Shown here one piece after another: positions 15,731-32,000 of a stretch of 32,000 bases of DNA (position 1 is its first letter; every line of letters starts with the position of its first letter). The notes beneath the pieces were generated by a model, which worked only from the letters and a program-made list of their open reading frames with translations, did no database searches and was not told the origin of the DNA. The stretch covers positions 4,500,001 through 4,532,000 of the forward strand of contig NC_009483.1 of assembly GCF_000016745.1 (NCBI RefSeq). The letters are read 5' to 3'. The DNA comes from Geotalea uraniireducens Rf4. Its GTDB lineage: Bacteria; Desulfobacterota; Desulfuromonadia; Geobacterales; Geobacteraceae. A program made the translations under genes and the position numbers.

Positions 15731-15731
15731 G

Positions 15732-15929: not shown

Positions 15930-15943
15930 GAACATTCCCCTGT

Positions 15944-16819: not shown

Positions 16820-16837
16820 GAGCGCCTCCTGTGTTGA

Positions 16838-16880: not shown

Positions 16881-17083
16881 TCCAAAAGGTTTTTATTCAG
16901 CGAACATATTAGTCAGCTGCTGGTCTAAGTTACCCATATAAGTAGCTTATGTCTCATATAACCTACGGTCTTATCTTCTCTTCCCTTTGGTGAAATCCTC
17001 CGGGATTCTCCCATTCAGCTCGGTGCTGCCTCATCATCCCTGAGGCTCACGGAGCTGTTCGGCAGAAAACAACACACCCTTCC

Positions 17084-17112
17084 TTGACACACTACCAGAT
17101 ATCATATACGAT
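17084..17112 (+). promoter_or_regulatory. Putative sigma70 promoter of the PIN-RHH module
   Basis: TTGACA (17084-17089), 17-nt spacer, TACGAT (17107-17112), 7 nt before the ATG region. Confidence 0.45.
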
Positions 17113-17118
17113 ACCAAC

Positions 17119-17547: not shown

Positions 17548-17780
17548 GTACCATGAGTCTGAGACTTCCCGATTATTTACATAAATCGGCCAGGCAGTTA
17601 GCCAAGAGCGAGCACATTTCCGTCAATCAGCTTGTCGCTACCGCACTTGCGGAAAAGATTTCCGCGCTTGCTACCGAGGAATATCTGGACGCATTGGCCG
17701 CCCAAGGCAGCCGCGAGGCATTCGACCGGATCATGTCCAAGGTTAAGGATCGTCCCCCCCTTCATGGAGATGAACGCTGA
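17544..17780 (+). CDS. Ribbon-helix-helix antitoxin (HicB-C-terminal / Arc-like), encoded downstream of its toxin
   Basis: 78 aa. MSLRLPDYLHKSARQLAKSEHISVNQLVATALAEKIS is an RHH signature. It overlaps the PIN gene by 4 nt (ATGA). Confidence 0.75.
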   Translation: MSTMSLRLPDYLHKSARQLAKSEHISVNQLVATALAEKISALATEEYLDALAAQGSREAFDRIMSKVKDRPPLHGDER

Positions 17781-17808
17781 TATGCCGAACCTGAGCCTGC
17801 AGCGGTTT

Positions 17809-18403
17809 TCACCCCTGGCTCTCCCGGAGCTGATGTGCGGCGGTGAAATAATGGCGGTACCCTTGAAGGAGGATGAGAAAGGCGGTGATTGCGACCGCGC
17901 CGGTAATTCGGTTTCGATCTCCTCGCGCCGCTCATGTATCTCTGCCGAGAGCCGCTCTGCTGCAAGGCTGGCGCCGTTCATGGAGTTGCCGATGATCATC
18001 CCCGCCAGGGGTATCAGGTAGCGGGGGTCGTACCAGGGAGAATAACCGACCACCAGGCCGCAGAAGAGGAAAGTCACCCCGCCGCAACCGATGAACAGGG
18101 AGGTCCCCACCACCCGGTAAAAATGCGGCATCTTCTGCCTGATCCGCCCACCCATGACTTGCAGCGAAAAGCCGGCCATGGCAAGCAGATGGCGATTACC
18201 GCCAGGGGACTCCGGACGGCAAATACGAGATGGAGAAGATAGCCCACAGCGAGAAGCTGGAACACCATCCGCACCGAAGCCCACAACATCTGCCCCTCCT
18301 GGCCGATGCGCGACAGGCGCGCCAGGCCGATGGCCAAAAGAACAAGGCCGTAGGCGAGCGCCAGGTCCAGCAACTCCAGATTGATAATCTTTGCGTTTTC
18401 CAC
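17809..18403 (-). pseudogene. fetB: fetB/ybbM-like iron-export ABC permease, decayed by a frameshift plus an internal deletion
   Basis: N-terminal part runs in one frame (MENAKIINLELLDLALAYGLVLLAIGL...QLLAVGYLLHLVF). The middle runs in a second frame from about 18190 (LLAMAGFSLQ...IPLAGMIIGNSMNGASLAAERL...EIET). The C-terminal tail runs in a third frame (ITGAVAITAFLILLQGYRHYFTAAHQL, stop at 17809-17811). The LPGMMTGQ region expected between the last two is missing. Confidence 0.7.
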
Positions 18404-18626: not shown

Positions 18627-18989
18627 TCAAAAAGTAGGTGGGGGTGAAAAGAAACCGGCTTCCCTGGCGAAGCGTTTTGCCTCGTCAAGTTCCGCCTGGG
18701 TGAGCCGCGCATTCCGCAGATTGCTGAAGCGATTGCCGATCCGGTCGTTGAGAAAGCGAAAGGTTGCGGACTTCTCCTCCAGCTCGGATTTCATGAAGCG
18801 GATGCAGCCTTTGCATTCCGGGTTGCGTACCGCATGTTTCCGTGCGTCGATGCGGTGTCTCCAGGCAAGGATGCGCATACCCAAAAGAAGCGGTTCCCGT
18901 ACAATGGGGAACCACCAGTGTCGCTTATGGACGATTCGGGCGAGCATAAGCGCGCAGTTCTTGCAGATGATGGGGTGGCAGCCCTTCAT
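18627..18989 (-). CDS. Cys-rich hypothetical protein (120 aa), translationally coupled to the ABC exporter
   Basis: ATGA start/stop overlap with the upstream ABC gene. Cysteines sit at MKGCHPIICKNC and NPECKGC, which looks like two CxxC-type pairs. I recognise no family. Confidence 0.6.
   Translation of the reverse strand: MKGCHPIICKNCALMLARIVHKRHWWFPIVREPLLLGMRILAWRHRIDARKHAVRNPECKGCIRFMKSELEEKSATFRFLNDRIGNRFSNLRNARLTQAELDEAKRFAREAGFFSPPPTF
18938..18973. repeat. 36-nt direct repeat, copy 2 (inside the 5' end of the Cys-rich gene)
   Basis: See copy 1 at 14543-14578; 33/36 identical, same orientation. Confidence 0.85.
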
Positions 18990-20743
18990 ACCGCTTCCTC
19001 CAGCAGTATTCCCGACTGGTGCAGCCGCCAGTAATACCCCTGTCGCTGCAACAGCTCGTGATGGTTGCCGGTTTCGACGATCTTTCCCTGGTCGAGCACG
19101 ACGATGGCATCCATTTCCTGCACCGTGGATAGACGGTGGGCAATGACCATCAGGGTGCGCCCTTGCGAAACCCGGTGGATTGCCGCCTGCAATACCGCCT
19201 CGGTATTGGAGTCCAGGCTGGCGGTCGCTTCATCGAGGATCAGGATCTTCGGGTCGAACACCAGTACGCGCGCAAATGACAGGAGCTGCCGTTCACCCGA
19301 AGACAGCGTGCTCCCCCGTTCCGACAACATGGTGTCATACCCTTTCGGCTGCTTCAGGATGAAAGGCTCGGCGCCGATCAGGCGGCAGGCCTCTTTCACC
19401 CGCTCCGCCGGGATCTCTTCCCGGAAAAACCGGATATTGTCGATGATGGTCCCGGAAAAGAGGGTGACATCCTGCTGGACTATGCCCACCGTCTGCCGCA
19501 AGGCATCAAGCGGCCATTCCCGGACATCTTTACCGTCGATCACCACTACCCCGGCGGTTACGTCATAAAACCTGGTTACCAGGTTCATCAGCGATGACTT
19601 GCCGGCGCCCGACGCGCCGACGAAACCGACCCGTTCCCCGGCTTGAATCGCCAGCTGGATCTTGTTGAGGACGGGATGTCCCGGCCGGTAGGCGAGTGAG
19701 ACCTGTTCAAACCTTACCCGACCATGCACCGACGGGGCCAACGCTCCCGGCAGCTCCCTGATTTCCGGCTGTTCCTGCAGGGTCCGGGCGATCCGTTCCG
19801 AGGCGACAATGGAAGATTGCAGCACGTTGAATTGCTGGGTGATTATGTTGATCGGCTGGAAAAACCGCCTCACATAGCCGACAAACGCATAGAGCACCCC
19901 GAAAGAGACCGCCCCGTGAATAACCGCCCGGCCGCCGAACCATACCAGTGCCGCCACCCCCAGATCACCCACCAATTCGGTGAGGTTGTTCAGGAGGACG
20001 TTGATCCGGTTCTCGAAGATTGTCGCGTCCAGCAGGGCCTTGTTCTTCTCGTCGAACTTCCTTTGCTGTTTGGCCTCCTGATTGAAGATCTGGACAATGG
20101 CCATCCCGGTCAGGTTCTCGGCAAGAAAGGCAATGGTTGCCGACAGGCGGCTCCGGATCTCCCGGTAGGTCTTGCTTAATATTCTTCTCAGGGAGAGAGA
20201 AATAATCAAAACTATCGGGATCAGGAGAAAACAGTAGAGTGCGATGGGAATATCCAGCCGGAGCATGAAAAACATGATCAGGATCAGGGAAAGACAGCCG
20301 CGTAACGTGTTCGGCAGGAACTGGGTAAAGAAATTGTTGATGGACTCCGTGTCGTTGACAACATTGGTGATGATGCTCCCCGCAGAATGTTGATCGAAAT
20401 AGCGCAGGGAGAGTTTCTGAATATGCTTGAACAGGTCGACTCGGATGCTCCTGACAATGGCTTGACCTGCGTACTGCAAGAGGATGTCCTGGTAATAGGT
20501 CAGGCCGAAAGAGAGGAGCGACATCCCGAGATACCCTGCCGCCATCCAGAAAATGGCTTCGGCATTGGGGTTCGGCACCACCAGATAGCGGTCTATGGCC
20601 TCTTTGACCAGATAAGGCTGCGCCAGGTCGATGAGGACCACGGTAATTACCAGGCAGAGCACCAGGGCAAGGCGCGCCCGATAGATCCGCATATACGGCA
20701 AAAGGGTGCGCAGAGCACCCTGTGACTGTAATTGAGTGCTCAT
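18986..20743 (-). CDS. ABC exporter half-transporter (TMD-NBD), canonical Walker B, non-canonical signature
   Basis: 585 aa. Six N-terminal TM segments, Walker A GASGAGKSS, signature LSSGERQ (deviates from LSGGQ), Walker B ILILDEA, H-loop VIAHRLST. Confidence 0.9.
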   Translation of the reverse strand: MSTQLQSQGALRTLLPYMRIYRARLALVLCLVITVVLIDLAQPYLVKEAIDRYLVVPNPNAEAIFWMAAGYLGMSLLSFGLTYYQDILLQYAGQAIVRSIRVDLFKHIQKLSLRYFDQHSAGSIITNVVNDTESINNFFTQFLPNTLRGCLSLILIMFFMLRLDIPIALYCFLLIPIVLIISLSLRRILSKTYREIRSRLSATIAFLAENLTGMAIVQIFNQEAKQQRKFDEKNKALLDATIFENRINVLLNNLTELVGDLGVAALVWFGGRAVIHGAVSFGVLYAFVGYVRRFFQPINIITQQFNVLQSSIVASERIARTLQEQPEIRELPGALAPSVHGRVRFEQVSLAYRPGHPVLNKIQLAIQAGERVGFVGASGAGKSSLMNLVTRFYDVTAGVVVIDGKDVREWPLDALRQTVGIVQQDVTLFSGTIIDNIRFFREEIPAERVKEACRLIGAEPFILKQPKGYDTMLSERGSTLSSGERQLLSFARVLVFDPKILILDEATASLDSNTEAVLQAAIHRVSQGRTLMVIAHRLSTVQEMDAIVVLDQGKIVETGNHHELLQRQGYYWRLHQSGILLEEAV

Positions 20744-22611
20744 GCCACCTCCTCTGTCAAGCCGGCCTGCATGGCTGCCAAACCTTCCGTCAAACCGGGC
20801 GGGATAAAAGCCTCATCATCCGTCAAACCGGGTCGCCCGGGTGACCCTTCCTCCGTCAGACCGGCCTGCATCTGCCATAATCCGGCATAGGGGCCGCCCG
20901 CCTTGATCAGCCCGGCGTGGTCACCCCTTTCCACGATGCGCCCTTCGTCGAGGACCAGGATCTCGTCCGCCTGCTGGACCGAGCTCAGCCGATGGGAGAT
21001 GATGATGGTCGTCTTTTTGTCTTTGCAGCTCAAACGCGCCTTCAGGCGTCCCTTGTCTCCCATATTTCTCAGGATCTGCCGTTCCGTATTCGTGTCTATG
21101 GCACTCAGACTGTCATCAAGTATCTGGATGGGCGCATCCTTGTAAATTATCCGCGCTATGGCGACGCGCTGCTTCTGACCGCCGGACAACCTTACCCCCC
21201 GTTCACCGACCTCGGTTGCAAAACCCTCGGGAAAGCGCTCGATGTTTTCGTAAACAGCGGTAATTCTCGCGGCGTTTTTTACCCGTTCCAAGTCGGGCGC
21301 CTCATCTGAAAAGCCGATGTTTTCATTGAGGGTGGTCGAAAAGAGAAAGCCGTCCTGCGGCACATACGCCATCCCCTGCCGGAGCCGCGCCAGTGGATAC
21401 TGAAGGATATCCGCGCCGTCGATGAAAACCGTCCCCTCCGGCGGGTCGTACAGCCTGAGGAGCAGGTCGGCCAAGGTGGTCTTGCCGCTTCCCATGGGAC
21501 CGATAATGCCCAGGGTCTTCCCCCTTTTCACGTGAAAGGAGATATCGGTCAGGACATCCCGCTCTGTGCCCGGATAACGGAAGGTCAGTCCGTTCACGCT
21601 CAAGGTCCCCTGAAGCGGCCGGTCGAGCAAAGCCCCTTGCCGGTCACGGACTGCCGGCACGACCTGCATCAGCTCCGAGATCCTGTTGAGGGATGCGCTT
21701 GCACGTTGAATGACGTTGAGCACCTGCCCCAGGTGCTCCAGCGGGTTACGGAGCAGGGCTATGTATAAGGTGAAGGCAACATAGTCCCCGATGGTGATCA
21801 CCTTGGTGATGGTCAGGAAGCCGCCGTAACCGAGGACGCCGATGAAACCCAGATTGGCCATCAAGGGGACGAGGGCGCCGAAGAGGGAAGAGTTGCGGAC
21901 AAATCTGATTTTTTCCGCAACGATGGTATCCACTTTCTGTTCGAATTGTCCGATAACCACCCGTTCGTTGCCGAAGGCTTTGACAGCGCGGATGCCGCCG
22001 ATGACCTCTTCAACGGTCTGGGCCATGGAGCCCAGTGCCTCCTGGCAATGGGTGGACTGCGTTCTGATTTTGGGCCCAAGATATCTGACCAGAACCGGAA
22101 TGATAAAGAGCGGCCCCAGACCGACAACGGTCAGCCTCCAGTCTCCGTGCACCACCATCATATACAGCACGGCCGTCAGCATGGTCAGGCCGGCTGCCGC
22201 CTGATTGATCCCCATGGTGGCGAATTCCCGGATAACCTCCACATCGCTCAGGGCATGGGACAAAAGTTCGCCCGTGCTGTGGCCGTGATAATAGGCAGGT
22301 GAAAGGGTCCCCCATTTTTGCAGCAGGTCCCGGCGCAGGTCATAGGTGAGAATGCGCCCCCGGCGGTGGGAAAGGGTGCGCCCCGTCCATGCCGCCGTCA
22401 CCCTGCCGAGACCGAGCAGGATCAGCACCCCCGCACAACTAGCCGTATCCTCGATACTCAGGTTGCCATGCTGCAAACGGTCGGCAAAGCGGCCAAGCAC
22501 CCTGGGAATGAATACCGATAAGAGGCTTGAAGTCGCGATGATGATGACGGCGATACAGTAGACAAGCCTGTGCCGGTAAATATATGACAGCATGATGCGC
22601 CAACCTGACAT
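20740..22611 (-). CDS. ABC exporter half-transporter (TMD-NBD), degenerate Walker B, with a repeat-containing C-terminal tail
   Basis: The ATG at 22611 is preceded by GGAGAG; the track start at 22632 is a TTG. Walker A GPMGSGKTT, signature LSGGQKQR, Walker B IQILDDS (Asp replaces the catalytic Glu). Tail carries 4 GLT(E/D)x motifs. ATGA overlap with the next gene. Confidence 0.88.
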   Translation of the reverse strand: MSGWRIMLSYIYRHRLVYCIAVIIIATSSLLSVFIPRVLGRFADRLQHGNLSIEDTASCAGVLILLGLGRVTAAWTGRTLSHRRGRILTYDLRRDLLQKWGTLSPAYYHGHSTGELLSHALSDVEVIREFATMGINQAAAGLTMLTAVLYMMVVHGDWRLTVVGLGPLFIIPVLVRYLGPKIRTQSTHCQEALGSMAQTVEEVIGGIRAVKAFGNERVVIGQFEQKVDTIVAEKIRFVRNSSLFGALVPLMANLGFIGVLGYGGFLTITKVITIGDYVAFTLYIALLRNPLEHLGQVLNVIQRASASLNRISELMQVVPAVRDRQGALLDRPLQGTLSVNGLTFRYPGTERDVLTDISFHVKRGKTLGIIGPMGSGKTTLADLLLRLYDPPEGTVFIDGADILQYPLARLRQGMAYVPQDGFLFSTTLNENIGFSDEAPDLERVKNAARITAVYENIERFPEGFATEVGERGVRLSGGQKQRVAIARIIYKDAPIQILDDSLSAIDTNTERQILRNMGDKGRLKARLSCKDKKTTIIISHRLSSVQQADEILVLDEGRIVERGDHAGLIKAGGPYAGLWQMQAGLTEEGSPGRPGLTDDEAFIPPGLTEGLAAMQAGLTEEVA

Positions 22612-22643
22612 TCTTATCTCTCCGTACACCAAAGACTGCTTGT

Positions 22644-23675
22644 TTATTTCCCGGGCGATTCCGCATACACCTGATCGATGAGACGGCTGTCGATCCAGCT
22701 GACGTAGTCGACGGAGCCGTTGGCAAGACCGGCATCCTTGAGGAATGCCTCCTCGGCTTTAAACGCTTCGATCGCTTTCCCCGTAATTCGGGGATACTGG
22801 TAAAACATATTGTCCGGATAATCCCTTTGCACGGCGCTTTCTTTCTTTTTGGTCGTCTCGGAGAAAATCTTTATGGTCTCTGCCGGATGTGCATCGGCCC
22901 AGCGGGCGGCCTCCAGGTCGATCTTCAGGAGGCGCTTGATCAGGGACTGATGTTTTTTGAGAAAATCACCGTTGGCAGAAATAGCCGAAGGACTGGACCA
23001 TTCGGGATGGCTTCTTCCATCGTGGATAATCCTTATTGATCCGGTTTCCAATAAGGGAGTAAAAGTATTCCTCCCCTCGACGACGGCATCGATATCTCCG
23101 CGCATCAAGGCTGGCCCGGAGGCTTCGAAGGCAAGATTGAGCCCATCGATATCCTTGAGGGAAAGACCCTCATGCTTCAAGGCTTTGGCAATGGTGGAGT
23201 GCCGTACCGTGCCAGTTAAATACGCAACCTTTTTCCCCTTCAGGTCCTTCACCGAATTGATCGGAGAGTCCTTCCTGACGGCGATGTCGGAGCCTCCGTT
23301 TTTACCAAAGCTGGAAAGGCCTATCAACTTGACATTAGCGCCCGATGCCGCTGTGCGCAGGGCGGGATCCGATGCGGTATACGCCACATCCAGACCACCG
23401 GTAGCCAATGCTGTCATGGCTTCCTGTCCACCGCCGGAAAAGGGATAGTACTCGACCTTAATGCCATCCTTGGCAAATTCCTCGTCCCACAATCTCTTTT
23501 GTTGGCTGAGAATAAACTTCAGATGGCCCGGGGCTGTGCTTCCGATGCGGATTACAGGCACTTTTTTCTCAGCGGGATTCGGTTTACCGGACAGAGCATA
23601 TCCGGCCACCACTAATATCGTCACCAGCAGAAAGCTGCCGATGACCAAGGGCTTTTTTGATTTTTTATCGGTCAT
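22644..23675 (-). CDS. ABC transporter substrate-binding protein, NitT/TauT (NMT1/SsuA-like) family
   Basis: 343 aa. N-terminal membrane anchor (PLVIGSFLLVTILVVAGYAL), then a type-2 periplasmic binding fold pattern (IRIGSTAPGH..., GGLDVAYT, YLTGTVRHS). GAGGAG RBS. Confidence 0.8.
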   Translation of the reverse strand: MTDKKSKKPLVIGSFLLVTILVVAGYALSGKPNPAEKKVPVIRIGSTAPGHLKFILSQQKRLWDEEFAKDGIKVEYYPFSGGGQEAMTALATGGLDVAYTASDPALRTAASGANVKLIGLSSFGKNGGSDIAVRKDSPINSVKDLKGKKVAYLTGTVRHSTIAKALKHEGLSLKDIDGLNLAFEASGPALMRGDIDAVVEGRNTFTPLLETGSIRIIHDGRSHPEWSSPSAISANGDFLKKHQSLIKRLLKIDLEAARWADAHPAETIKIFSETTKKKESAVQRDYPDNMFYQYPRITGKAIEAFKAEEAFLKDAGLANGSVDYVSWIDSRLIDQVYAESPGK

Positions 23676-23724
23676 CTGTTACTCCTCATCTACGTTCTTC
23701 GTAAAATTATTCAGCACCGATGAA

Positions 23725-23849
23725 TAACTCCCCCTGTCCCCCTCTTAACTTAAGAGGGGGGACGTGAAAATCGGCTTCGTCTGGGACTTCCGATACAGCG
23801 ACAACATTGCGTCCCTCCCCTTAGCTTAAGGGGAGGACAGGTGGGGTTA
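23725..23849. repeat. REP/MITE-like double-hairpin element, copy B
   Basis: TAACTCCCCC..CCCCCTCTTA-ACT-TAAGAGGGGG (23738-23760) ... GTCCCTCCCCTTAGCTTAAGGGGAGGAC (23811-23838) ... GGGGTTA. Same ends and both hairpins as copy A, with a longer central segment. Confidence 0.8.
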
Positions 23850-24066
23850 TTGGTTTTGGCAGTAAGCTGAATAGTTACCTTTCTTCTTGGTTACCATTTC
23901 TTAGCCGGCAAAACTGGAACCAGCGTGAAAAGCGACCCCTTCGGGACGACAGGAGGATAGGCATCCTGCCTGTCATGGCAGCGAAGCTGCCAACGCAGGC
24001 GAGACGCCTACGCTCCAACGAATCTTCTTCTGGCAACATGTTGTCATGAGATTGGCGCTAAAGCGC

Positions 24067-24936
24067 CTAATGGGTTGATGCTTTCCAGGGGGTTGCAGAC
24101 TTTTCGAACCAGACGAGCAGGTAATTGATTAACAGGCCGAAAATTGCGAGTGCCAGAATACCCGCATACATCTCCGGAATGCGGTACATTAAATGGGAGT
24201 TCTGGATGAAAAAGCCCAAACCCGATTTTGCTGCCAGCATTTCGGCGCCGATCACCGCCATGAGTGAGGATTTGACCCCCAGACGCGCACCTGAAACGAT
24301 GGAAGGAATACTTGCCGGCAAGATTACCTTTATGAACAGATCCGTATCCGAGGTACCCATTGATTTTGCGGCCTTGAGATAGAGAGGATCCACACATTTC
24401 ACGCCGCTGATGGTGTTGATGAGGATAAACCAGACCGCTGCCAGGAAGGTGATCGCAATCTTCGATGACTCACCGATACCCAGGACCATGATGAACACCG
24501 GGAGTAACGCGAAATGAGGGGTATTGCGCAGTCCCTGGATCATCAGGTCGGCGATTTTCTCCAGCCGGGAGTATCTTCCCATCAGGAACCCCAGGGGAAC
24601 GGCGACCACCACCGCCAGGAAAAATCCCGTAAGCGCGCGTTGCAGGCTCACTCCGATATGGCCGAACAATTCACCTGAAAGGATCAAACCCTTGAGGGCG
24701 ATTATTGCCTTGGAAAACGGGGGAAAAAAAATCGGACTGACGATCCCTGTCAGCGGCGCGATTTCCCAGACGGCAAAAAAGACGAAGACAAGGGGCAATC
24801 CGTACAGAACGGTTCCGGCTTTCTCCTTCCAATGGAGAATCCGACTGAGAACCTGTACTGTTTTTGATTTGGGGAGCCCGACCGAATCTTTTGCGCTCTG
24901 ATTCAATCCGAGTTTTTTCAAGATGATCTCCGTCAT
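24067..24936 (-). CDS. ABC transporter permease, NitT/TauT (SsuC/TauC-like) family
   Basis: 289 aa. Six hydrophobic segments and the EAA-like loop (LKAAKSMGTSDTDLFIKVILPASIPSIVSG). GGAAGGTG RBS. Confidence 0.88.
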   Translation of the reverse strand: MTEIILKKLGLNQSAKDSVGLPKSKTVQVLSRILHWKEKAGTVLYGLPLVFVFFAVWEIAPLTGIVSPIFFPPFSKAIIALKGLILSGELFGHIGVSLQRALTGFFLAVVVAVPLGFLMGRYSRLEKIADLMIQGLRNTPHFALLPVFIMVLGIGESSKIAITFLAAVWFILINTISGVKCVDPLYLKAAKSMGTSDTDLFIKVILPASIPSIVSGARLGVKSSLMAVIGAEMLAAKSGLGFFIQNSHLMYRIPEMYAGILALAIFGLLINYLLVWFEKSATPWKASTH

Positions 24937-25015: not shown

Positions 25016-25909
25016 TCATATGGATGCAAACGTTGAAATCACATCGGCCACGGGGGGACCGTTAACCTGTTTCCGCTCGATGATGTCGTTCTTGTCCTGC
25101 AACAGCTCCTTGATCTTGTGCCTGGTCCAGCTGAATTCCGCAGATGATCTGATGTCGCTCTTGTAGCGCGGTCTGGGTAGATTGGTGGCGACGATTTCCC
25201 TGATCGTACCGGGGTTGGTGGTCAGGACTGCAACCCGATCCGCAAGGTAAACCGCCTCGTCAATGCTGTGGGTGACGAAGATGATCGTTTTTTTCGTTTC
25301 ATCCCAGATGCGGAGCAGTTCGTCCTGTAGCGTTTCCCTTGTTTGGGCATCCACTGCGGCGAACGGCTCATCCATGAGAAGAACTTCCGGATCGTATGCA
25401 AGGGCGCGGGCGATTGCAACCCGCTGTTTCATACCGCCGGAAAGCTCAAGGGGATAACGGTTTTCGAATCCATCCAGGCCGACGAGCCGGATGAAATGCT
25501 GACTGATATCCTTGCGCTCTTCCTTGGGGACATTCTTCACCTCCAGGCCGAACTCGACATTCCTCCGGACAGTGCGCCAGGGGAAAAGGGCGTAACCCTG
25601 AAGGACAATGCCGCGATCAAGTGCCGGTCCGGTAATCTTCTTTCCGTCGATGTGGATTTCTCCGGAAGCGGGCCGGGTAAGCCCCGCCAGAATGTCGAGA
25701 AGAGTGGATTTGCCGCAGCCTGAAGGCCCTACAATGGCGACGAACTCCCCTTTTTTCACCTTCATGTTGATATTGCTGAGGGCCGTGAACTCAGACGGTA
25801 CTTCCCCGTTACTTTTTTTCCGGCGATAAACCTGGCTGATATTTTCCAAAATGATTTTACTCTCGTCGGTCTCGCGTCTTTCACTGGTATCACTTTGCCC
25901 GGCAGCCAT
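25016..25909 (-). CDS. ABC transporter ATP-binding protein, NitT/TauT (SsuB/TauB-like) family
   Basis: Walker [10 protein letters not shown], signature LSGGMKQR, Walker B LLMDEPF, H-loop FVTHSIDEA. The start is placed at the second ATG (25909), which follows GGAGGAGG; the ORF-track start is 25924. Confidence 0.9.
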
Positions 25910-26071
25910 CTGTGCCTCCTCCATTTACTGAATGTTAAGCTGTTTTTCCCAACACCAAACTGCCCGCAAGTCCCGGTTCCCGTTTCTACCCCAGCTATGA
26001 AATCCCCCAACCCAAAGAGTGGAGACAAGTTGTCTGAGTTTATGTCCTGCATGATTCTTGGTGTTACTTAC

Positions 26072-26101
26072 GGTAGAGACGCATCGCAATGCGTCTCTAC
26101 C
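26072..26101. repeat. Perfect 30-nt palindrome 6 nt after the stop of the HgdB-like gene
   Basis: GGTAGAGACGCAT-CGCA-ATGCGTCTCTACC, 13-bp stem. No U-tract on the transcribed strand. Confidence 0.85.
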
Positions 26102-26107
26102 CTATTT

Positions 26108-27295
26108 CTAAGCTACATTTGCCAGGGCTACCCTGGTTTCCAGCAATTCAACAAAAGCGCCGACCCGGGTCCTGATCCCTTCGTAATCGGAACCCGCATA
26201 TTCCGTATGAATTTCCAGGACGGCAAAGCCTTCGTTGTTCAGTATCCTTTTTGCTTCGGATGCCTTGAAGGTGAACGGATCGCAATAGCGGAGGGTGTGA
26301 TAGATCACGCCATGGGCGCCGAATTTCCTGGCAAGCGCGGTGCGGGTCGCCAGTCTTCGGTCCGTCTTTGCGTCGAGTATGGGGAGGGCGCCATGGGGAA
26401 AACGGCCGAGATAGGCTTCCGCGATCCCTTTCAGGGTCGGCTCCTTGATGTCCAGCTCGATGGCAGGGGCCAATCCTGACCACAAATCATCGCCGACGAT
26501 CCTCGCCCCGGCCTTTTCGATGATTTCGATCAGCTTGGTGTCGCCGGGTGGGATCACGCTGCCGGAGATGAAGATCCGCGGCTTGTCCCCCAGGTCGTTT
26601 AGTACCGGCTCCCCAACGGCTTCTTTCAGTTCGGCCAACAATTCCTCCAGCAGGGTCAGATACTTGGTTCTGCAGAGGTAATAGCCTGCCTGCACGACAT
26701 TGTAGGTTTCACGCCAGGAAATGGCCGGATTGGTTGCGGCCTGATAGTCGTACAGTTTTCTGACTGCGGCCCTGATGTCGTTGTGCAACTGGACCGACTC
26801 GGCCAGTTTCCCTGCGTCGAGCTTGGTGCCGGCGAATTCTTCCAGTTTTGCGGCGAAATCCGCCACTTCCTTGCGGTAATATTCCACTCCTTCGGGAAGA
26901 TGGAAATTCTTCGGCACGTCGATAAGCAGGGTGTTCACATTGAAATAGTATTTGACCACTTGTGCTGTGCGGAAGGTCTGCAGGCAGGTGGTGTCGAACA
27001 CGACCAGATCCGCGCTCTTGATGTAAGGGTCCGTATTTTCTTCGAAGAGACCAACCGCCTCCCTCAGGAATACGCAATTCTGTGTGGAAAGATAGCGACC
27101 CCCTTTTTCCACCAGGGCCTCGCTACCACCCAGGCCAAGTCTGACCGGGATAAGGCCCAGGGCATGAAATATTTCCACGGGGACGTTGTAGCTGAACCAT
27201 CCGACGACCTTTTTCCCTTTCTGCTTGGCCGCTTCCAGTTGTGCCGGCCTTTCCTTGACAGCATTTTCTATTTTTACCAGTGTGTTAAGCGGCAT
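26108..27295 (-). CDS. 2-hydroxyacyl-CoA dehydratase / benzoyl-CoA reductase family subunit (HgdB / BcrB-BadE-like, HGD-D domain)
   Basis: The ATG at 27295 (MPLNTLVK) is preceded by AAGGAG; the track start at 27328 is a GTG without an RBS. N-terminal KKVVGWFSYNVPVEIFHALGLIPVRL and C-terminal GVIYHTLRYCDPF are typical of HGD-D family subunits. Confidence 0.75.
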   Translation of the reverse strand: MPLNTLVKIENAVKERPAQLEAAKQKGKKVVGWFSYNVPVEIFHALGLIPVRLGLGGSEALVEKGGRYLSTQNCVFLREAVGLFEENTDPYIKSADLVVFDTTCLQTFRTAQVVKYYFNVNTLLIDVPKNFHLPEGVEYYRKEVADFAAKLEEFAGTKLDAGKLAESVQLHNDIRAAVRKLYDYQAATNPAISWRETYNVVQAGYYLCRTKYLTLLEELLAELKEAVGEPVLNDLGDKPRIFISGSVIPPGDTKLIEIIEKAGARIVGDDLWSGLAPAIELDIKEPTLKGIAEAYLGRFPHGALPILDAKTDRRLATRTALARKFGAHGVIYHTLRYCDPFTFKASEAKRILNNEGFAVLEIHTEYAGSDYEGIRTRVGAFVELLETRVALANVA

Positions 27296-27334
27296 TTCTA
27301 ATCTCCTTTTTGGCTTTTTATGTGCCACCCAGCC

Positions 27335-28753
27335 CTATGCGGCTTTCTTGGCTTTACCATTTTTCAGAATCTCGATGAACGATTCAATCCGGTTCTGGGT
27401 CTGCTCGGTGGCTTCGGAGCGGCCAAGCTCGGCAACCTCGATGTTGATGGTCGGAATGCCTGTTTCCTTCTTGACGATGTCCGCCACCAGTCGGGAGGTG
27501 GCCGACTGGTAGTTGCAACCCCAGTTGTAGCCGCATACCACCCCGTCGGCGCCCGATTTCCGCGCCAGGTCGGCGACGTACCGGGCGCGTTCTTCGGCCG
27601 GTTTCTCATAGTTATAGGTGAGCGCCGCTCTGGCCAGATTCACGTATGGGTCATTGCCGGTCTCGTCCACATCCGCGTAAATCTTGCTCAGGTGGTCGTC
27701 GGTGCCGACGAGCAGGCCACCCTTTGCCTCCACGAATTCGCCATTCAAGCCAAAGCAGGAGCCGGATGCCAGCAGCTTCACCGGATCGGAGCTGACGCCG
27801 TGTGCAACCACGGAATTTTTGATCCGTTCCTTGATCTCTACGATAGCCTGCTCCAGGAGCTGGGTCGCTGCCAGGGAATCGCCGGAGGAAAAGCGGCCGG
27901 TAGTGATCAGGCTGCCCAGGTTGGAGCTCTGAACAGGGGGGAGAGCGGCAGACCAGACAAGCTCGGTCACCTCGCGGGCTGCGCGGCGACCCCGGTTTTC
28001 CAGCTTGATCTCGTTCCAGAGATCCTCTTCCGTGGCCTGTTTGCCGCGGATATCGCCGATCTGCTTGATCAACCGGCGGAGCATGTCGGCAAAGTACTCG
28101 ACGGCTGATTCCTTGTCCCCGGTGATCGGATAGTCGATCAGGGTAAAGGGAATACCATTGAATTTATTCCTGTACGCTTCGATGGAAAAACCGATGTCGG
28201 TGCAGCGCAGGTTCAGGTAGGGGGCGATCAGGTCCACCGGTACAATACCTTTGCTGATGGCCGATATGGAGCCGATCGGATTGTTGCAGGCATCGACGGA
28301 TACGGTAATTCTGCCTGCTTCGAGAATTTCATTGGCCACCTGATCCGCTTGACGCAGAGTCAGACCCTCCTTCATGTCCCGCGCCCAGCCTCTCAGCGGC
28401 CCCGGAACAATGGGGATGCCGCCGGCGGCAAAGTAGGGATCAACGGTCTGTCCTCCGGCAACATGGATGATGGGTGTGCCGCTCTCATGGGCCTCCAGCA
28501 GCCGGTCGCGAAAGGAAAGCGCCATGTAGCCCAGCTTGATACCGGTGAAGAACGTGACATCATCGGACAGCCTGCCGTAATAACGGCGGGAGTGGTCGAA
28601 GGCATTGGGAAATCTTTTCGGTGCTTCAATGGTCATGAAATCCCAGATTTCAGCGGCTGAAACATGTTTGCCGTTTTTGAAATCCAGTCCGGGAGTTTTA
28701 ATGAAGTCCGCTTTTAATTCTTCCGGATAATGGAATATGTGGGTACTGCTCAT
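27335..28753 (-). CDS. 2-hydroxyacyl-CoA dehydratase / benzoyl-CoA reductase family subunit (HgdA / BcrC-BadD-like, HGD-D domain)
   Basis: The ATG at 28753 is preceded by GGAGGA; the track start at 28768 is a TTG. About 472 aa. C-terminal ADGVVCGYNWGCNYQS and internal cysteines (VDACNNP, LRCTDIG) fit the family pattern. It is adjacent to the activase. Confidence 0.7.
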   Translation of the reverse strand: MSSTHIFHYPEELKADFIKTPGLDFKNGKHVSAAEIWDFMTIEAPKRFPNAFDHSRRYYGRLSDDVTFFTGIKLGYMALSFRDRLLEAHESGTPIIHVAGGQTVDPYFAAGGIPIVPGPLRGWARDMKEGLTLRQADQVANEILEAGRITVSVDACNNPIGSISAISKGIVPVDLIAPYLNLRCTDIGFSIEAYRNKFNGIPFTLIDYPITGDKESAVEYFADMLRRLIKQIGDIRGKQATEEDLWNEIKLENRGRRAAREVTELVWSAALPPVQSSNLGSLITTGRFSSGDSLAATQLLEQAIVEIKERIKNSVVAHGVSSDPVKLLASGSCFGLNGEFVEAKGGLLVGTDDHLSKIYADVDETGNDPYVNLARAALTYNYEKPAEERARYVADLARKSGADGVVCGYNWGCNYQSATSRLVADIVKKETGIPTINIEVAELGRSEATEQTQNRIESFIEILKNGKAKKAA

Positions 28754-28786
28754 GATCGAATCCTCCAATGTTTGAGTATATGCCCT

Positions 28787-28816
28787 GATAGAAACGCATT
28801 GCGCTCCCGTCTCTGC
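28787..28816. repeat. Degenerate copy of the AGAGACGCATTGCG palindrome, 6 nt after the activase stop
   Basis: GATAGAAACGCATTGCGCTCCCGTCTCTGC versus the reverse complement of 26072-26101, GGTAGAGACGCATTGCGATGCGTCTCTACC. About 24 of 29 positions are shared. Confidence 0.6.
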
Positions 28817-28822
28817 ATGTCT

Positions 28823-29632
28823 TTATGCGGCTTTTCTTGCCTGCTTTGCTTCCAGCTCCTTGGCAAATACCGCAGCACCCAAAGCCCCGACCAGCTGCGG
28901 GTCGAAGTTATCCAGCGTCACTATTTTCGCCTTGAGTACTTCCTCCAGAACTGCTTTCATCCCCTCATTCTTGGCAACCCCGCCGGAGAAGAACAGGTCG
29001 CTCTCGACACCTACGCGGGAGAACATCCCGGCGATCCGGTTGGCGATGGAGTGATGGATCCCCTTGACGATGTTGGCCTTGTTTTCGCCCCGGGCCAGGA
29101 GCGAAATGGTCTCGGATTCGGCAAAGACCGTACAGGTACTGCTGATGGGGACGAATTCCTCGGCTGACAGCGACAGGGGACCCAGCTCTTCCAGCTTCAC
29201 CTGGAAGTTGTTGGCGATGATTTCGAGAAAGCGGCCCGTACCGGCGGCGCACTTGTCGTTCATGTTGAAGTCGATGACGTTGCCGTCCTTGTCCAGGCGG
29301 ATTGCCTTGCAGTCCTGTCCCCCCATTTCCACGATCGTCCGGGTGTTCGGCTTGAGGTGGTGAGCCCCCTTGCCGTGGCAGCTGATCTCGGTGATGATCT
29401 TGGTGGGGATGTTGTCGAAATTGATCGATACCCGGCCGTAGCCGGTACCGACGATGTAGTCGATCTCTTCGTACTTGTGCCCGGACTTCTCCAGCAGTTG
29501 CGAAAGAATCCAGGTCGCCGTTTCCTGCATGTCCAGACCGGTTGCCGTTATGGTCGAGTGAGTCGTCTCGCCGTTCAGAATTACCCCTTTTGCTGTCCTT
29601 GATCCGATGTCGATACCAACCACGATGCTCAT
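28823..29632 (-). CDS. BcrAD/BadFG-type ATPase: activase (archerase) of 2-hydroxyacyl-CoA dehydratase-like enzymes, HgdC-like
   Basis: The ATG at 29632 (MSIVVGIDIGSRTAKG) is preceded by AAGGAG. Acetate/sugar-kinase fold phosphate loops. The conserved cluster-bridging cysteine context NDKCAAGTGRFLE is present, plus a second Cys in EISCHGKGA. Size (269 aa) matches HgdC-type activators. The 71-codon N-terminal extension of the track ORF runs through REP hairpins. Confidence 0.85.
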   Translation of the reverse strand: MSIVVGIDIGSRTAKGVILNGETTHSTITATGLDMQETATWILSQLLEKSGHKYEEIDYIVGTGYGRVSINFDNIPTKIITEISCHGKGAHHLKPNTRTIVEMGGQDCKAIRLDKDGNVIDFNMNDKCAAGTGRFLEIIANNFQVKLEELGPLSLSAEEFVPISSTCTVFAESETISLLARGENKANIVKGIHHSIANRIAGMFSRVGVESDLFFSGGVAKNEGMKAVLEEVLKAKIVTLDNFDPQLVGALGAAVFAKELEAKQARKAA

Positions 29633-29774: not shown

Positions 29775-29830
29775 ACCCTCTCCCGGAGGGAGAGGGTAAA
29801 CAGTATTCTCTCTCCCTCTGGGAGAGAGAT
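29775..29830. repeat. Two REP-like hairpins (10-bp stems, 3-nt loops) upstream of the activase gene
   Basis: A-CCCTCTCCC-GGA-GGGAGAGGG-T (29775-29797) and TCTCTCTCCC-TCT-GGGAGAGAGA (29807-29829). Confidence 0.85.
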
Positions 29831-29938
29831 CTGGAGTTTGGACATTTACGTATGTTCCTTTATTAAAAGCTTGACATACATACCCTGTATTTATTAAGAT
29901 GGCGCCTCTGTACAAATTCTCGAATGGAGGATGCCATT

Positions 29939-30265
29939 ATGGAAAAAGAGGAAATCCGCGACATCATTTTAGACACAATGGTAGTTTCCTTGGAAGCGCA
30001 ATTGCGGGCCTTGAAGAAACTTCGGGGTGCTGCCGAGGAAGTGGAGCCCCGCAGCAAAGGTATGTCGCAGATTGACATGGTGCTTAACATACTTAATGCA
30101 GTCGGAAAGCCACTACACATTTCGCAAATCATTGAAGATGTTGAAAAGACTTTTGGAGTAAAGCTGGAGAGGGAGTCTCTCGTCTCTGCTCTTTCAAAAA
30201 AGGTGATGAAGGAGGACCGTTTCATTCGTACCGGCAAAAACACCTTTGCCTTGAAAGGCAGGTGA
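29939..30265 (+). CDS. IS-encoded small protein, putative winged-helix (HARE-HTH-like) DNA-binding protein
   Basis: MSQIDMVLNILNAVGKPLHISQIIEDVEKTFG...EDRFIRTGKNTFALK resembles a winged-helix module. The start at 29939 follows GGAGGA (alternative ATG at 29924). The stop overlaps the transposase ORF. Confidence 0.5.
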   Translation: MEKEEIRDIILDTMVVSLEAQLRALKKLRGAAEEVEPRSKGMSQIDMVLNILNAVGKPLHISQIIEDVEKTFGVKLERESLVSALSKKVMKEDRFIRTGKNTFALKGR

Positions 30266-30270
30266 GGAAT

Positions 30271-31647
30271 ATGCTGAGCGAACAGATGACATCTCTCTTG
30301 CAGGATGCCTGTGCTGGGGCTTTTGTTCAACAGCGAACCCAAATCCGCGCTATGGAGCTTTCTCTTGGAACTTTGTGCGCATTGGGGCGACGGACCCTCT
30401 CCCGTTCCATTTGTGCCGTTGGAAGACAGCATCAGGACTGGAGTGCTGATTACAAGGTGTTTTCCCGTAGCCAGTGGGAGGCCGACCAGTTGTTCTCTCC
30501 GGTCTTGAAAGAGTATTGTACGCGGTACCCTGCGGATCAGCCTGTTTGTGTGGCGTTTGACGATACCAAGCTGGCCAAGAGCGGGCGAAAGATCAAGTCG
30601 GCCTTTTGGCAAAGGGATCCGCTGTCTCCGCCGTTCCATGTCAACTTCCTGTATGGCTTGAGATTTATGCACGCATCCCTGATCTTCCCTCACTACCGGG
30701 ATGGCGATTTCTCCGCTCGCGGATATCCTGTCCGCTTCGTGGAATGCCCAGCGATCAAGAAGCCGGGGAAAAAGGCAACTGATGAAGAGAGGGCGCAATA
30801 CAAGAAGGCGGTGAAGACTCATAATCTCTCGCAGCAGGGACTTGAAATGATCAAGGGGTTGAGAGTCGATCTTGACCGTCTGGGGGAAACAAAGAGGAGA
30901 ATGGTGGTCGCAGTTGATGGCAGTCTCTGTAATCGCACCATCCTCTCCAAACCGCTGGATCGTGTTGAGGTTGTCGGTCGTTGCAGGAAAGATGCGCGGT
31001 TGTGTTTTCCTGCTCCGGCAGGAGGAAGGCGCAAATACAGCGAAGAGCGATTTTCTCCTGAAGGGGTCAGGCAAGATGAGACGATCCCCTGGCAAACCTG
31101 CAGGATTAATTTTGGCGGAGCATGGCGGGATATTCGGTACAAAGAAGTCAATAATGTTCTGTGGCAAAGAGGTGCGAAACTCCGCTCTCTTCGGCTGCTG
31201 GTGGTTGCACCGCAACCGTACAGGACATCGCCAAATGCTAAAAGGAATTATCGTGACCCGGCCTATCTCTTGAGCACTGACATACAAAGTGACTCTCAGA
31301 TGTTGCTGCAAAGTTACTTTGATCGTTGGCAGATAGAGGTCAATCATCGTGAGCAAAAGGATACCATTGGTGTCGGAAACGCTCAGGTCTGGTCTGACAA
31401 GTCTGTCCCACGACAACCGGCATTCGCCGTTGCCAGCTACAGCCTCTTGCTGCTTGCGGGATTGAAAGAATTTGGACCTGGACGTACTCATGACTTTGTT
31501 CCCTTGCCAAAATGGAGAAAAAAAGCAAACAGACCTTCGGCTCTCGACCTGATTACTCTACTCAGAAAGGAGATCAGCGAAGCACCAATTACCGATATTT
31601 TGAAACTTAACATCGCGAAAAATATCATGCCCTACGCATATACTTGA
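30271..31647 (+). CDS. DDE transposase, IS4 superfamily (IS701-like)
   Basis: About 458 aa. The C-terminal YFDRWQIEVNHREQKD matches the Y-x2-R-x3-E-x6-K signature of IS4-type transposases. It lies inside the inverted repeats. First ATG at 30271 (the track uses the GTG at 30262). Confidence 0.75.
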   Translation: MLSEQMTSLLQDACAGAFVQQRTQIRAMELSLGTLCALGRRTLSRSICAVGRQHQDWSADYKVFSRSQWEADQLFSPVLKEYCTRYPADQPVCVAFDDTKLAKSGRKIKSAFWQRDPLSPPFHVNFLYGLRFMHASLIFPHYRDGDFSARGYPVRFVECPAIKKPGKKATDEERAQYKKAVKTHNLSQQGLEMIKGLRVDLDRLGETKRRMVVAVDGSLCNRTILSKPLDRVEVVGRCRKDARLCFPAPAGGRRKYSEERFSPEGVRQDETIPWQTCRINFGGAWRDIRYKEVNNVLWQRGAKLRSLRLLVVAPQPYRTSPNAKRNYRDPAYLLSTDIQSDSQMLLQSYFDRWQIEVNHREQKDTIGVGNAQVWSDKSVPRQPAFAVASYSLLLLAGLKEFGPGRTHDFVPLPKWRKKANRPSALDLITLLRKEISEAPITDILKLNIAKNIMPYAYT

Positions 31648-31670
31648 AACTATATATGTCCAAACTCCAG

Positions 31671-31695
31671 TTCTCTCTCCCTCTGGGAGAGAGAT
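31671..31695. repeat. Right copy of the 25-bp direct repeat (REP-like hairpin) flanking the IS
   Basis: Identical to 29806-29830. Confidence 0.9.
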
Positions 31696-31766: not shown

Positions 31767-32000
31767 TCAGATGGCATAGCTGAACAGCTTATCCGCATCC
31801 AGGTGAAACTCCGCCAGCACCTCATCCTTTAGTTTCTGAAAATCATACGATGCCCGATCCCGCGGTCTGGGGAGCTGGACCGGAACGATCTTCCTGATCG
31901 TCCCCGGACGGGACGACATGATAACGATCTTGTCGGATAGATAAATCGCCTCCTCCACGTCATGGGTGACCATGATCATGGTGATGGCTTCTGCTTTCCA
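31767..32000 (-). CDS. ABC transporter ATP-binding protein, NitT/TauT-like, C-terminal part only (continues beyond the window)
   Basis: The frame is open to base 32000. ...AITMIMVTHDVEEAIYLSDKIVIMSSRPGTIRKIV parallels [30 protein letters not shown] of the 25016-25909 ATPase. Confidence 0.8.
   Translation of the reverse strand, partial: WKAEAITMIMVTHDVEEAIYLSDKIVIMSSRPGTIRKIVPVQLPRPRDRASYDFQKLKDEVLAEFHLDADKLFSYAI

Follow-up and report, generated by a model that had tools for sequence, protein, structure and literature searches.

What would an ATP-driven, low-potential electron-transfer enzyme of a kind that acts on coenzyme A (CoA) thioesters do among importer genes, with no CoA-activating enzyme nearby? 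The question is raised by three genes in a 32,000-nucleotide stretch of Geotalea uraniireducens Rf4 (contig NC_009483.1, positions 4,500,001 to 4,532,000; hereafter the window), which encode an activase and two HGD-D subunits, here called α and β. The original prediction, made from the letters of the window alone, had proposed a radical enzyme acting on an imported and possibly non-CoA substrate, and had held that this substrate could not be predicted from sequence. Comparative evidence now points to sulfonates and to sulfur scavenging. The explanation we favour, with slightly less than even confidence, is that the system would serve anoxic sulfur scavenging by importing free sulfonates and cleaving their C–S bond with ATP-energised low-potential electrons. 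The enzyme would then be a new heterodimeric branch of the superfamily of benzoyl-CoA reductases (BCRs), 2-hydroxyacyl-CoA dehydratases (HADs) and double-cubane cluster proteins (DCCPs), acting on free imported substrates and not on CoA thioesters. Four independent lines of evidence point to sulfonate-sulfur scavenging: the family of the binding proteins, the sulfur economy of the proteins, the neighbouring genes and, weakly, the ecology of the hosts.

The presence of a BcrAD/BadFG-type ATPase and two HGD-D subunits on the minus strand was confirmed by profile searches, with scores far above the cut-offs. The activase gene (28823-29632, 269 amino acids (aa)) encodes an HgdC/BcrAD-type ATP-dependent electron-transfer ATPase that matched PF01869 with 211 bits (cut-off 31.5, profile positions 1-271) and TIGR00241 with 253.5 bits (cut-off 125.4). 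Its ATG at 29632 is preceded by a GGAG ribosome-binding site, and the phosphate-binding ASKHA motif GIDIGSRTAKG occupies residues 6-16. Its cysteines lie at residues 85, 108, 128 (DKCAAGTG) and 167, and we take C128 and C167 to match the bridging [4Fe-4S] ligands C127 and C166 of HgdC. The α gene (27335-28753) encodes the large, variable HGD-D subunit, in the 472-aa form recorded in public assemblies, and the β gene (26108-27295) the small, highly conserved one (395 aa, or 406 aa from an alternative GTG start at 27328); their PF06050 scores are 167.5 and 282.6 bits, respectively (cut-off 28.4). The window has one activase gene, as do most related loci.

NitT/TauT-type components bracket the module, as first described. 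On one side, also on the minus strand, are an ATP-binding cassette (ABC) importer ATPase (25016-25924, PF00005; gene callers use a start at 25909, giving 297 aa), a permease (24067-24936, PF00528) and a membrane-anchored extracytoplasmic binding protein of the SsuA (aliphatic sulfonate) family (22644-23675, 343 aa, TIGR01728). On the other side, the C-terminal 77 codons of a second importer ATPase (31767-32000, minus strand) belong to a gene that runs off the window. Both ATPases resemble the same families: the best NCBIfam matches of the complete one are SaoA (263.7 bits, cut-off 360), NtrCD (257.5 bits) and TauB (247 bits), and those of the fragment are SaoA, NtrCD and SsuB-type ATPases. The best matches of the permease, to SaoP (166.6 bits), TauC (127 bits) and SsuC (126 bits), are all below cut-off. 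Directly after the binding-protein gene, two overlapping minus-strand genes (20740-22632 and 18986-20743, PF00664 plus PF00005) encode a heterodimeric ABC exporter with MsbA, SmdAB and CydDC-like matches, every one under cut-off; this linked exporter had been missed originally. No CoA ligase, CoA transferase or acyl-CoA dehydrogenase was found among the annotated products of the 32-kb window, in agreement with the first description. The 183-nt spacer between the β and ATPase genes contains a perfect hairpin with a 13-bp stem (26072-26101), which may act in mRNA processing, stability or attenuation, and a scan for promoters and terminators gave counts no better than in shuffled sequence.

To place this arrangement in context, we gathered relatives by a search with α, which gave 103 at 40-94% identity, and by a scan of one genome per species, which gave 67 further loci. 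Open reading frames (ORFs) were called and clustered in 78 sources, and the gene context, extending up to 10 kb on the flanks, was compared for ~70 related loci. These span at least 12 phyla of bacteria and archaea, and in them the activase, β and α are kept together with SsuA-family importers and are often interleaved with them, so the importer linkage noticed in the window is conserved. HGD-D proteins were present in 75 of the 78 sources (114 α-like and 78 β-like proteins), the activase in 60, an ABC-type ATPase in 62 (a cluster that includes exporter proteins), the permease in 56 and an NMT1/SsuA-type binding protein in 51 (77 copies); many of the sources missing a gene are short contigs. 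The hosts include archaea (Methanoperedens, Altiarchaeia, Bathyarchaeota and methanogens), green and purple phototrophs (Chlorobiaceae and Thiodictyon), Bacillota such as Ruminiclostridium hungatei and Paenibacillus forsythiae, and Margulisbacteria, spirochaetes, Chloroflexi and Acetobacteraceae.

Genes for the enzyme and for the transporter are interleaved in Clostridium kluyveri, Rhodomicrobium vannielii, Methanoperedens and spirochaetes. The order in C. kluyveri is activase, β, ATPase, permease, α, binding protein and an EntS-like pump of the MFS_3 family, with two ABC exporters adjacent, and in R. vannielii TonB-dependent receptor, β, ATPase, permease, α, binding protein, activase, MFS_3 pump and two ABC exporters. 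The exporter pair also adjoins the module in Chlorobiaceae and in many Bacillota loci. In Methanoperedens and related archaea (L008, L018 and L019), one activase and one β are followed by five to six tandem pairs of binding-protein and α genes. Across domains, β is far more conserved (55-63% identity) than α (40-54%). The simplest reading is that α would set the specificity and that its substrate would be the compound caught by the binding protein. Behind the pairs, L008 also has genes for a methyltransferase and TusA, for an ABC-2 exporter and a SulP/MOT1 transporter, for a cysteine desulfurase and for a radical-SAM protein. The R. hungatei locus (L046) carries several α and β paralogues, with two SBP_bac_1 (sugar-type) binding proteins among the HGD-D genes; these represent a third importer class linked to the family.

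A CoA-activating gene conserved with the module would have pointed back to CoA thioesters. We annotated every gene cluster recurring in at least three loci, except one cluster of HGD-D fragments, and no CoA ligase, CoA transferase or acyl-CoA dehydrogenase was among the recurrent clusters. None of these families was among the 25 commonest of the 169 families found in 148 non-recurrent neighbours, ten longer non-recurrent neighbours that were checked singly are unrelated to CoA metabolism, and the Pfam-annotated neighbourhoods likewise show no CoA-activating enzyme.

The large subunits also stand apart from the characterised enzymes, as neither of them reaches any HAD, BCR or DCCP equivalog cut-off. 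The best NCBIfam match of β is the double-cubane family NF040772 (212 bits, and 82.7 for α; cut-off 350), followed by HadC (104.1 and 42.2 bits; cut-off 700), BcrC (89.8 and 28 bits; cut-off 421) and HadB (28.5 and 19.6 bits; cut-off 750); the BzdN score is 61.9 bits (cut-off 453.8). The closest solved relative of β is DCCP (6ENO/7YYL, 120 bits), ahead of HadC, BzdN and MbdN. Among solved structures, the window α alone finds only HadC (25 bits), and a 64-sequence α profile reaches DCCP, HadC, HadB and BzdO. The AlphaFold2 model of α (predicted local distance difference test score 90.8) is about equally similar to HadB, HadC, BzdO, BzdN, MbdN, MbdO and DCCP, with template-modelling (TM) scores of 0.64-0.70 at 14-18% identity. 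The α family is small: 26 cluster representatives (50% identity) match at E ≤ 1e-30 among 1.84 billion. Together with the conserved importer linkage and the lack of a conserved CoA gene, this placement supports the proposal of an ATP-driven low-potential radical enzyme that would act on an imported, possibly non-CoA substrate.

The cysteines separate the module further from its nearest relative. DCCPs carry the motif CX19CX18-19CX29CX166-170CX32-34CX32C. β has exactly three invariant cysteines, which align with three of the DCCP cysteines and with the three-Cys site of the HadC/HadB/BzdO type; opposite five further DCCP cysteines in the 6ENO/7YYL alignment, β shows Ser, Pro, Gly, Asp and Ser. 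With only three of the needed cysteines kept, β is unable to carry the [8Fe-9S] double cubane known from DCCP and BzdN, and a double-cubane reading of β was rejected. The initial choice of DCCP as the nearest precedent agrees with the family relationship of β; the missing cysteines had been overlooked. In α, C156, C184 and C413 align with the three catalytic-cluster ligands of HadB and BzdO. C333, shared by 97% of the family, finds no equivalent in the solved relatives, and ~78% of the α proteins have two extra cysteines that make CxxC pairs with C184 and C333. The window α and its clade have Asn and Ser at these two positions (181 and 330), and the cluster type of α may differ between clades. 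A conserved N-terminal extension of ~70-90 residues in α is unaligned in HadB.

The first line of evidence for the substrate comes from the binding proteins. The window protein passes the SsuA-family model TIGR01728 (229.6 bits, cut-off 163.5), has an N-terminal hydrophobic anchor and finds SsuA (3UIF and 2X26) and TauA as its best solved relatives. All 66 distinct binding proteins of the family match TIGR01728 at E ≤ 1e-5, and 65 match the aliphatic sulfonate model PRK11553; none of the 66 matches a nitrate or bicarbonate model, and weaker matches to phosphonate models were found in 13 (TIGR01098) and three (PhnD). Almost all of the 77 binding-protein ORFs, a few of which are truncated or over-extended, show by eye an N-terminal hydrophobic segment, which argues that these proteins are true extracytoplasmic receptors.

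The second line is the amino acid composition. Proteins that cells make when starved of sulfur are characteristically poor in this element. Against a background of 346 other ORFs of the same loci (median Met+Cys 3.2%), the medians are lower for the binding protein (0.9%, p = 2e-27), β (1.25%, p = 9e-21), the porin (0.2%, p = 8e-10), the methyltransferase (1.5%, p = 7e-5) and the flavoprotein (2.0%, p = 0.02). In the window, the binding protein has three Met and no Cys in its 343 aa, and the 395-aa form of β has four Cys and no internal Met.

This signal distinguishes two branches of the family. The 59 distinct β proteins with no link to a FecB-type importer have 0-5 Met (median 1) and a median of three Cys, whereas the five β proteins of a FecB-linked clade, in which FecB-type genes are visible in three of the five loci, have 7-9 Met, with no overlap between the two groups (U = 0, p = 1.4e-4). 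The FecB-linked β proteins are 47-54% identical to the window β, similar to the Met-poor ones, and the proteins of this clade have a normal sulfur content. The FecB-linked α proteins (n = 7) are monophyletic in a neighbour-joining α tree; four come from long loci (L037, L039, L064 and L065) and three from short contigs (L054, L057 and L063). In the long loci, multiple FecB-type binding proteins take the place of the SsuA-type importer, and three of the four loci have FecCD-type permeases as well. The hosts are the methanogens Methanospirillum, Methanoregula and Methanoculleus and one Bacillota genome; the three loci of methanogens additionally encode DUF364/DUF4213 'heavy-metal chelation' proteins and O-methyltransferases. 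Because the archaeal Methanoperedens β proteins are depleted and the bacterial FecB-linked β is not, the Met/Cys signal tracks the transporter type and not taxonomy. Given the normal sulfur content of its proteins, the FecB-linked clade probably has a different substrate, predicted to lie outside sulfur scavenging and perhaps a metal chelate.

The third line is provided by sulfur-assimilation genes near the module. Cystathionine-type pyridoxal phosphate (PLP) enzymes and CysK-type PLP enzymes each recur in five loci and a cysteine desulfurase (Aminotran_5) in three. In the Bathyarchaeota locus, where the module runs binding protein, flavoprotein, permease, ATPase, activase, β and α, cysK and a NIR_SIR sulfite reductase gene adjoin the binding-protein gene and diverge from the module. 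In R. vannielii, a cysK scoring above cut-off and a gene for a CymR-like Rrf2 regulator lie immediately upstream. One Bacillota locus (L050) has cystathionine γ-synthase (CGS), cysK and an upstream CysE-like gene on one side and, downstream on the other, an S-adenosylmethionine (SAM) riboswitch before metA; another (L053) has CGS and cysK beside the module and a downstream SAM riboswitch before CGS genes. Methanoperedens loci carry TusA, a cysteine desulfurase and a SulP/MOT1-type anion transporter. In the window, cysK (TIGR01139, 489 bits) and two CGS genes controlled by a SAM riboswitch lie ~11 kb from the module. The SAM-I riboswitch (9813-9918, minus strand, 98.8 bits) precedes the two tandem cystathionine-type genes, cysK and serA are just upstream, and the cys/met block spans 7343-9759 and 10081-11010 around it. 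As to ecology, many hosts come from sulfate-poor anoxic habitats (boreal and humic lakes, bogs, aquifers and termite guts), which fits sulfur scavenging, if weakly.

Beyond these genes, the commonest recurrent neighbours are ABC exporter pairs (~25 loci), Porin_O_P (14 loci), a LacI regulator (13 loci), MFS_1 transporters (10 loci, with a separate MFS_1-type cluster in three), MFS_3 (EntS-like) pumps (nine loci), an FAD_binding_2 flavoprotein resembling fumarate reductase (nine loci), an ABC-2 permease (eight loci), a small radical-SAM protein (eight loci) and an ArsM/UbiE-like methyltransferase (seven loci). FecB-type binding proteins, TonB-dependent receptors and an uncharacterised 196-aa protein recur in four loci each. 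An aconitase large subunit, a FecCD-type permease candidate (a cluster not scanned against Pfam), DUF364/DUF4213, an O-methyltransferase and EamA recur in three each.

Several observations weigh against sulfonate scavenging. Membership of the SsuA family is no proof of sulfonate binding, as relatives in this family bind sulfate esters and TauA, which contacts sulfonate through one Gln side chain and three backbone amides, also binds the phosphonate 2-aminoethylphosphonate weakly (Kd 0.65 mM). The α subunit (3.3% Met+Cys) and the activase (3.4%) are not sulfur-poor overall, and an enzyme with three Fe–S clusters is itself sulfur-costly; as a low Cys content is common in extracytoplasmic proteins in any case, the composition argument is strongest for the cytoplasmic β. 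In the window, a low-GC island separates the cys/met genes from the module. No sulfur-responsive riboswitch was found directly before the module in 11 related loci, the SAM riboswitches in related loci belonging to neighbouring met genes, and the Bacillota loci carry a LacI-type regulator, not a known sulfur regulator. Simple desulfonation would need no ArsM/UbiE-like methyltransferase, small radical-SAM protein, MFS_3 pump, TonB-dependent receptor or exporter pair, and the flavoprotein is likewise unexplained. The literature searched gave no link of the family to sulfonates or sulfur starvation and no biochemical or expression data on any member; judged by title and abstract, papers on G. uraniireducens that mention 'sulfonate' are apparently unrelated to sulfonate metabolism.

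The unexplained neighbours keep alive a different reading, especially for the FecB-linked clade, namely that a metal chelate, a metallophore or an organometal(loid) compound is imported and reduced or released, with the ligand or a methylated product exported. This idea resembles Haft's proposal for the SAO system, in which DCCPs are genomically associated with a NitT/TauT-type importer and for which organometallic chemistry was proposed. It would account for the TonB-dependent receptor with TonB/ExbB in R. vannielii, the MFS_3 EntS-like pumps of nine loci, the ArsM-like methyltransferases, a weakly matching HMA protein and the monophyletic clade linked to FecB/FecCD and DUF364/DUF4213 proteins, and the co-occurrence of DCCPs with the SAO transporter sets a precedent. 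However, the binding proteins of the window's own clade are of the SsuA family, and only that clade shows the sulfur-poor composition, which the FecB-linked one does not share. The SAO equivalog cut-offs are not reached (SaoA 263.7 bits against 360, SaoP 166.6 against 295 and SaoX 46.7 against 300), neither a MerB-like SaoL nor a DsrE-like SaoD is among the recurrent clusters or listed neighbour families, although no dedicated search for them was made, and many host habitats are iron-rich. We regard metal handling as unlikely.

We judge it quite improbable that the module encodes a conventional 2-hydroxyacyl-CoA dehydratase or an aryl-CoA reductase of class I, with an importer that brings in the acid and a CoA ligase or transferase encoded elsewhere. 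The PF06050 and PF01869 matches, the HAD/BCR fold and the HadB/BzdO three-Cys site of α agree with such an enzyme, and the fumarate-reductase-like flavoprotein of nine loci could reduce an enoate. But the scores stay far under the HAD and BCR equivalog cut-offs without exception, ~70 neighbourhoods show no recurrent CoA-activating gene, and the partner binding proteins are of the sulfonate and not the carboxylate type. A sulfur-poor composition would be unexpected in a catabolic fermentation enzyme, and the single ATPase gene and the lack of the BzdN six-Cys double cubane in β are both unlike BCR.

It appears similarly improbable that the module encodes a double-cubane-like reductase that helps the cell to acquire nitrogen or to detoxify by acting on a small inorganic or nitrogen-containing molecule, such as an oxyanion, cyanate, hydrazine or an azide-type compound. 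DCCP is the closest relative of β, NitT/TauT importers also carry nitrate, nitrite and cyanate, and many host lineages are diazotrophs. Yet β lacks the distal-cluster cysteines, no binding protein matches a nitrate or cyanate model, the multiple pairs of α and binding protein imply a family of organic substrates, and the composition signal concerns sulfur.

Phosphorus scavenging by reductive C–P cleavage of phosphonates, or from reduced phosphorus compounds, could explain the Porin_O_P phosphate-selective-type porin of diderm loci, the weaker TIGR01098 and PhnD matches noted above and the weak phosphonate binding of TauA. We hold it to be very improbable, as every one of the 66 binding proteins scores far higher with the sulfonate models, pho and phn genes are absent from the recurrent clusters and the listed neighbour families, the neighbours are genes of sulfur assimilation and the sulfur-poor composition fits sulfur starvation. 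A thiamine-precursor importer (ThiY-like NMT1), suggested by thiC and thiDE in the window, was rejected because these genes are 25 kb away, the binding proteins are all of the SsuA subfamily and no thiamine-biosynthesis family is among the recurrent clusters or listed neighbour families.

If sulfonate-sulfur scavenging is the function, the parts could work together as follows. Outside the cell, the SsuA-family binding protein would catch an organosulfonate for uptake through the NitT/TauT permease with its ATPase. The activase dimer would take an electron from ferredoxin or flavodoxin and, driven by ATP hydrolysis, pass it to the three-Cys [4Fe-4S] cluster of β, from which it would move to the open-site cluster of α, where the substrate binds. 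One-electron reduction would give a sulfonate radical anion that expels sulfite, breaking the C–S bond. The remaining carbon radical could be quenched by a second electron and a proton, as in BCR with stoichiometric use of ATP, or the electron could be returned, as in HAD with catalytic use. The sulfite would then be reduced and fixed through sulfite reductase, CysK and the Met enzymes, and the desulfonated carbon skeleton may leave through the linked ABC exporter pair or the MFS pumps. With α as the specificity subunit, duplicating it with its binding protein would widen the substrate range while one β and one activase are shared. For oxo-sulfonates, the ketyl-radical expulsion of hydroxide in 2-hydroxyacyl-CoA dehydratases offers a possible parallel, and cleavage of aryl-sulfonates would mirror the ATP-dependent reductive elimination of ring substituents by benzoyl-CoA reductases.

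In G. uraniireducens itself the locus is interrupted. An IS701-family element (29807-31694), missed by the original prediction, separates the activase gene from the upstream second importer. Its transposase (30262-31647, plus strand) scores 153.5 bits against NF049999, under the cut-off of 170, and also matches PF13546; the inverted ends are 42 nt long and imperfect (88% complementary; 29807-29848 and 31653-31694). A spurious 542-aa ORF overlaps the element on the opposite strand. A search of the element against plasmids gave no match, and public contigs of the same sequence, carrying the 472-aa α, are short and end at the element. We used the locus of a close relative (L003, 91-94% identical) as a proxy for the sequence beyond base 32000. 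There the region is uninterrupted, with porin, binding protein, methyltransferase, permease, permease and ATPase directly upstream of α, followed by α, activase, β, ATPase, permease, binding protein and two exporters. The ATPase fragment at the edge of the window is 91% identical to the ATPase of this second importer, and the order of activase and α differs between L003 and the window. The insertion is possibly polar on the operon and may alter its expression in this strain.

The spacer between the permease and binding-protein genes is 390 nt in the window (23676-24066) against 16 nt in L003, and carries a pair of similar G/C-rich palindromes, CCTCCCCTTAAGCTAAGGGGAGG and CCCCCTCTTAAGTTAAGAGGGGG; further palindromes of a related type (CTCTCCC...GGGAGAG) adjoin the IS ends (29778-29826). 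These palindromes may form a repeat family of the repetitive extragenic palindrome (REP) or miniature inverted-repeat transposable element (MITE) type. A 120-aa ORF with no Pfam match (18627-18989, minus strand) overlaps the end of the second exporter gene, and may belong to the cluster, given that a small 115-aa gene stands directly after the exporter pair in L003.

Between the cys/met block and the module, the low-GC island (~14300-17600, 43-47% GC against 55-60% elsewhere) looks like an insertion; it carries genes for a VapB antitoxin with a PIN toxin (15374-16031), a second PIN protein (16205-16585) and PIN_3 (17119-17547). Next to it, the UPF0014 (FetB-like permease) frame at 17598-18403 is split over two overlapping ORFs and is probably a frameshifted pseudogene. 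The remaining products of the window are ThiDE, ThiC, a DUF3313 lipoprotein, GlgP (3902-6391), SerA, CysK, a major facilitator superfamily (MFS) transporter, the two cystathionine-type PLP enzymes behind the SAM riboswitch, the VapBC/PIN modules and the broken UPF0014 gene. A tRNA-Thr gene (CGT, 2814-2889) lies between thiC and the lipoprotein gene.

What would such a system mean? Aerobes release sulfonate sulfur with the oxygenases SsuD and TauD, and we know of no enzyme identified as responsible for anaerobic sulfonate-sulfur assimilation. Strict anaerobes reportedly grow on alkyl- and aryl-sulfonates as sole sulfur source, as Denger and Cook are said to have described in 1997. We suggest tentatively, with confidence clearly short of even, that the present family may be the missing oxygen-independent desulfonating enzyme, one that would cleave the C–S bond of free alkyl- or aryl-sulfonates with release of sulfite and with interchangeable α subunits. 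If so, an ATP-driven Fe–S system would fill the anaerobic sulfur gap, explain the assimilation of sulfonate sulfur by Clostridium reported in the 1990s, and bear on the cycling of sulfur where sulfate and oxygen are scarce, as in peat, humic and ferruginous lakes, aquifers and termite guts. A passage of a 2026 review lists, as routes of C–S cleavage in the mineralisation of sulfonates, only SuyAB, Xsc, CuyA and a glycyl-radical enzyme.

All defined physiological BCR and HAD substrates are CoA thioesters, and the natural substrate of DCCP is not established; the reaction proposed here, if correct, would be the superfamily's first defined physiological reaction without CoA. A clade tied to importers and free of CoA enzymes thus offers a tractable route to non-CoA chemistry, and the paired paralogues of α and binding protein give a handle for substrate discovery through ligand screens of soluble binding proteins. 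The public labels of these proteins, benzoyl-CoA reductase or 2-hydroxyglutaryl-CoA dehydratase subunits, invite false inference of aromatic degradation or amino acid fermentation, for example in Methanoperedens and Chlorobium. The component families are known and the activase mechanism is textbook; in the literature searched, we found no description of the clade, of its coupling to importers and exporters without CoA enzymes, of the pairing of α with binding proteins or of the sulfur-economy signature.

Among known systems, the 2-hydroxyacyl-CoA dehydratases (HgdAB/HgdC, HadBC/HadI, FldBC/FldI and LcdAB/LcdC) share the single-gene HgdC-type activase, the two paralogous HGD-D subunits, three-Cys [4Fe-4S] sites that align with the HadB/HadC ligands, and the fold (TM ~0.7), and the proposed loss of a neighbouring leaving group from a radical anion is patterned on their chemistry. 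The module differs from them in its low identity (14-18%), in having no CoA transferase, in being encoded with importers and exporters, in the N-terminal extension and fourth Cys of α, in the multiplication of α with binding proteins and in its sulfur-poor β. The class I benzoyl-CoA reductases (BcrABCD, BzdNOPQ and MbdONPQ) belong to the same superfamily and share the fold, the α-type three-Cys aqua-[4Fe-4S] site and very-low-potential reduction, but they have two distinct ATPase subunits, a six-Cys double cubane in BzdN and CoA-thioester substrates, and are encoded in aromatic-degradation clusters.

DCCP with its ATPase DCCP-R (6ENO, 7YYL) resembles the module in that it is the nearest relative of β and performs ATP-driven reduction of non-CoA substrates. 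However, DCCP is a homodimer with a seven-Cys [8Fe-9S] cluster, whereas the module has two different subunits and its β keeps three of those cysteines. Haft's SAO system is the only described precedent that pairs NitT/TauT importers with this superfamily.

For the cleavage of C–S bonds, the known oxygen-independent enzymes of anaerobes are the glycyl-radical sulfonate lyases IslA and HpsG together with SuyAB, Xsc and CuyA. These differ from the module in their unrelated folds and cofactors and in having no ATP-dependent electron activator, and they act on specific C2 or C3 hydroxy- or oxo-sulfonates, mostly in dissimilation. The proposed logic is that of SsuABC and TauABC with SsuDE and TauD, which also combine an SsuA-family binding protein with a NitT/TauT permease and ATPase, import a sulfonate, release sulfite and are made up of sulfur-poor proteins. 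But SsuDE and TauD are flavin or Fe/2-oxoglutarate oxygenases, whereas the module, found in anaerobes and linked to exporters, would be an oxygen-sensitive, ATP-driven Fe–S system.

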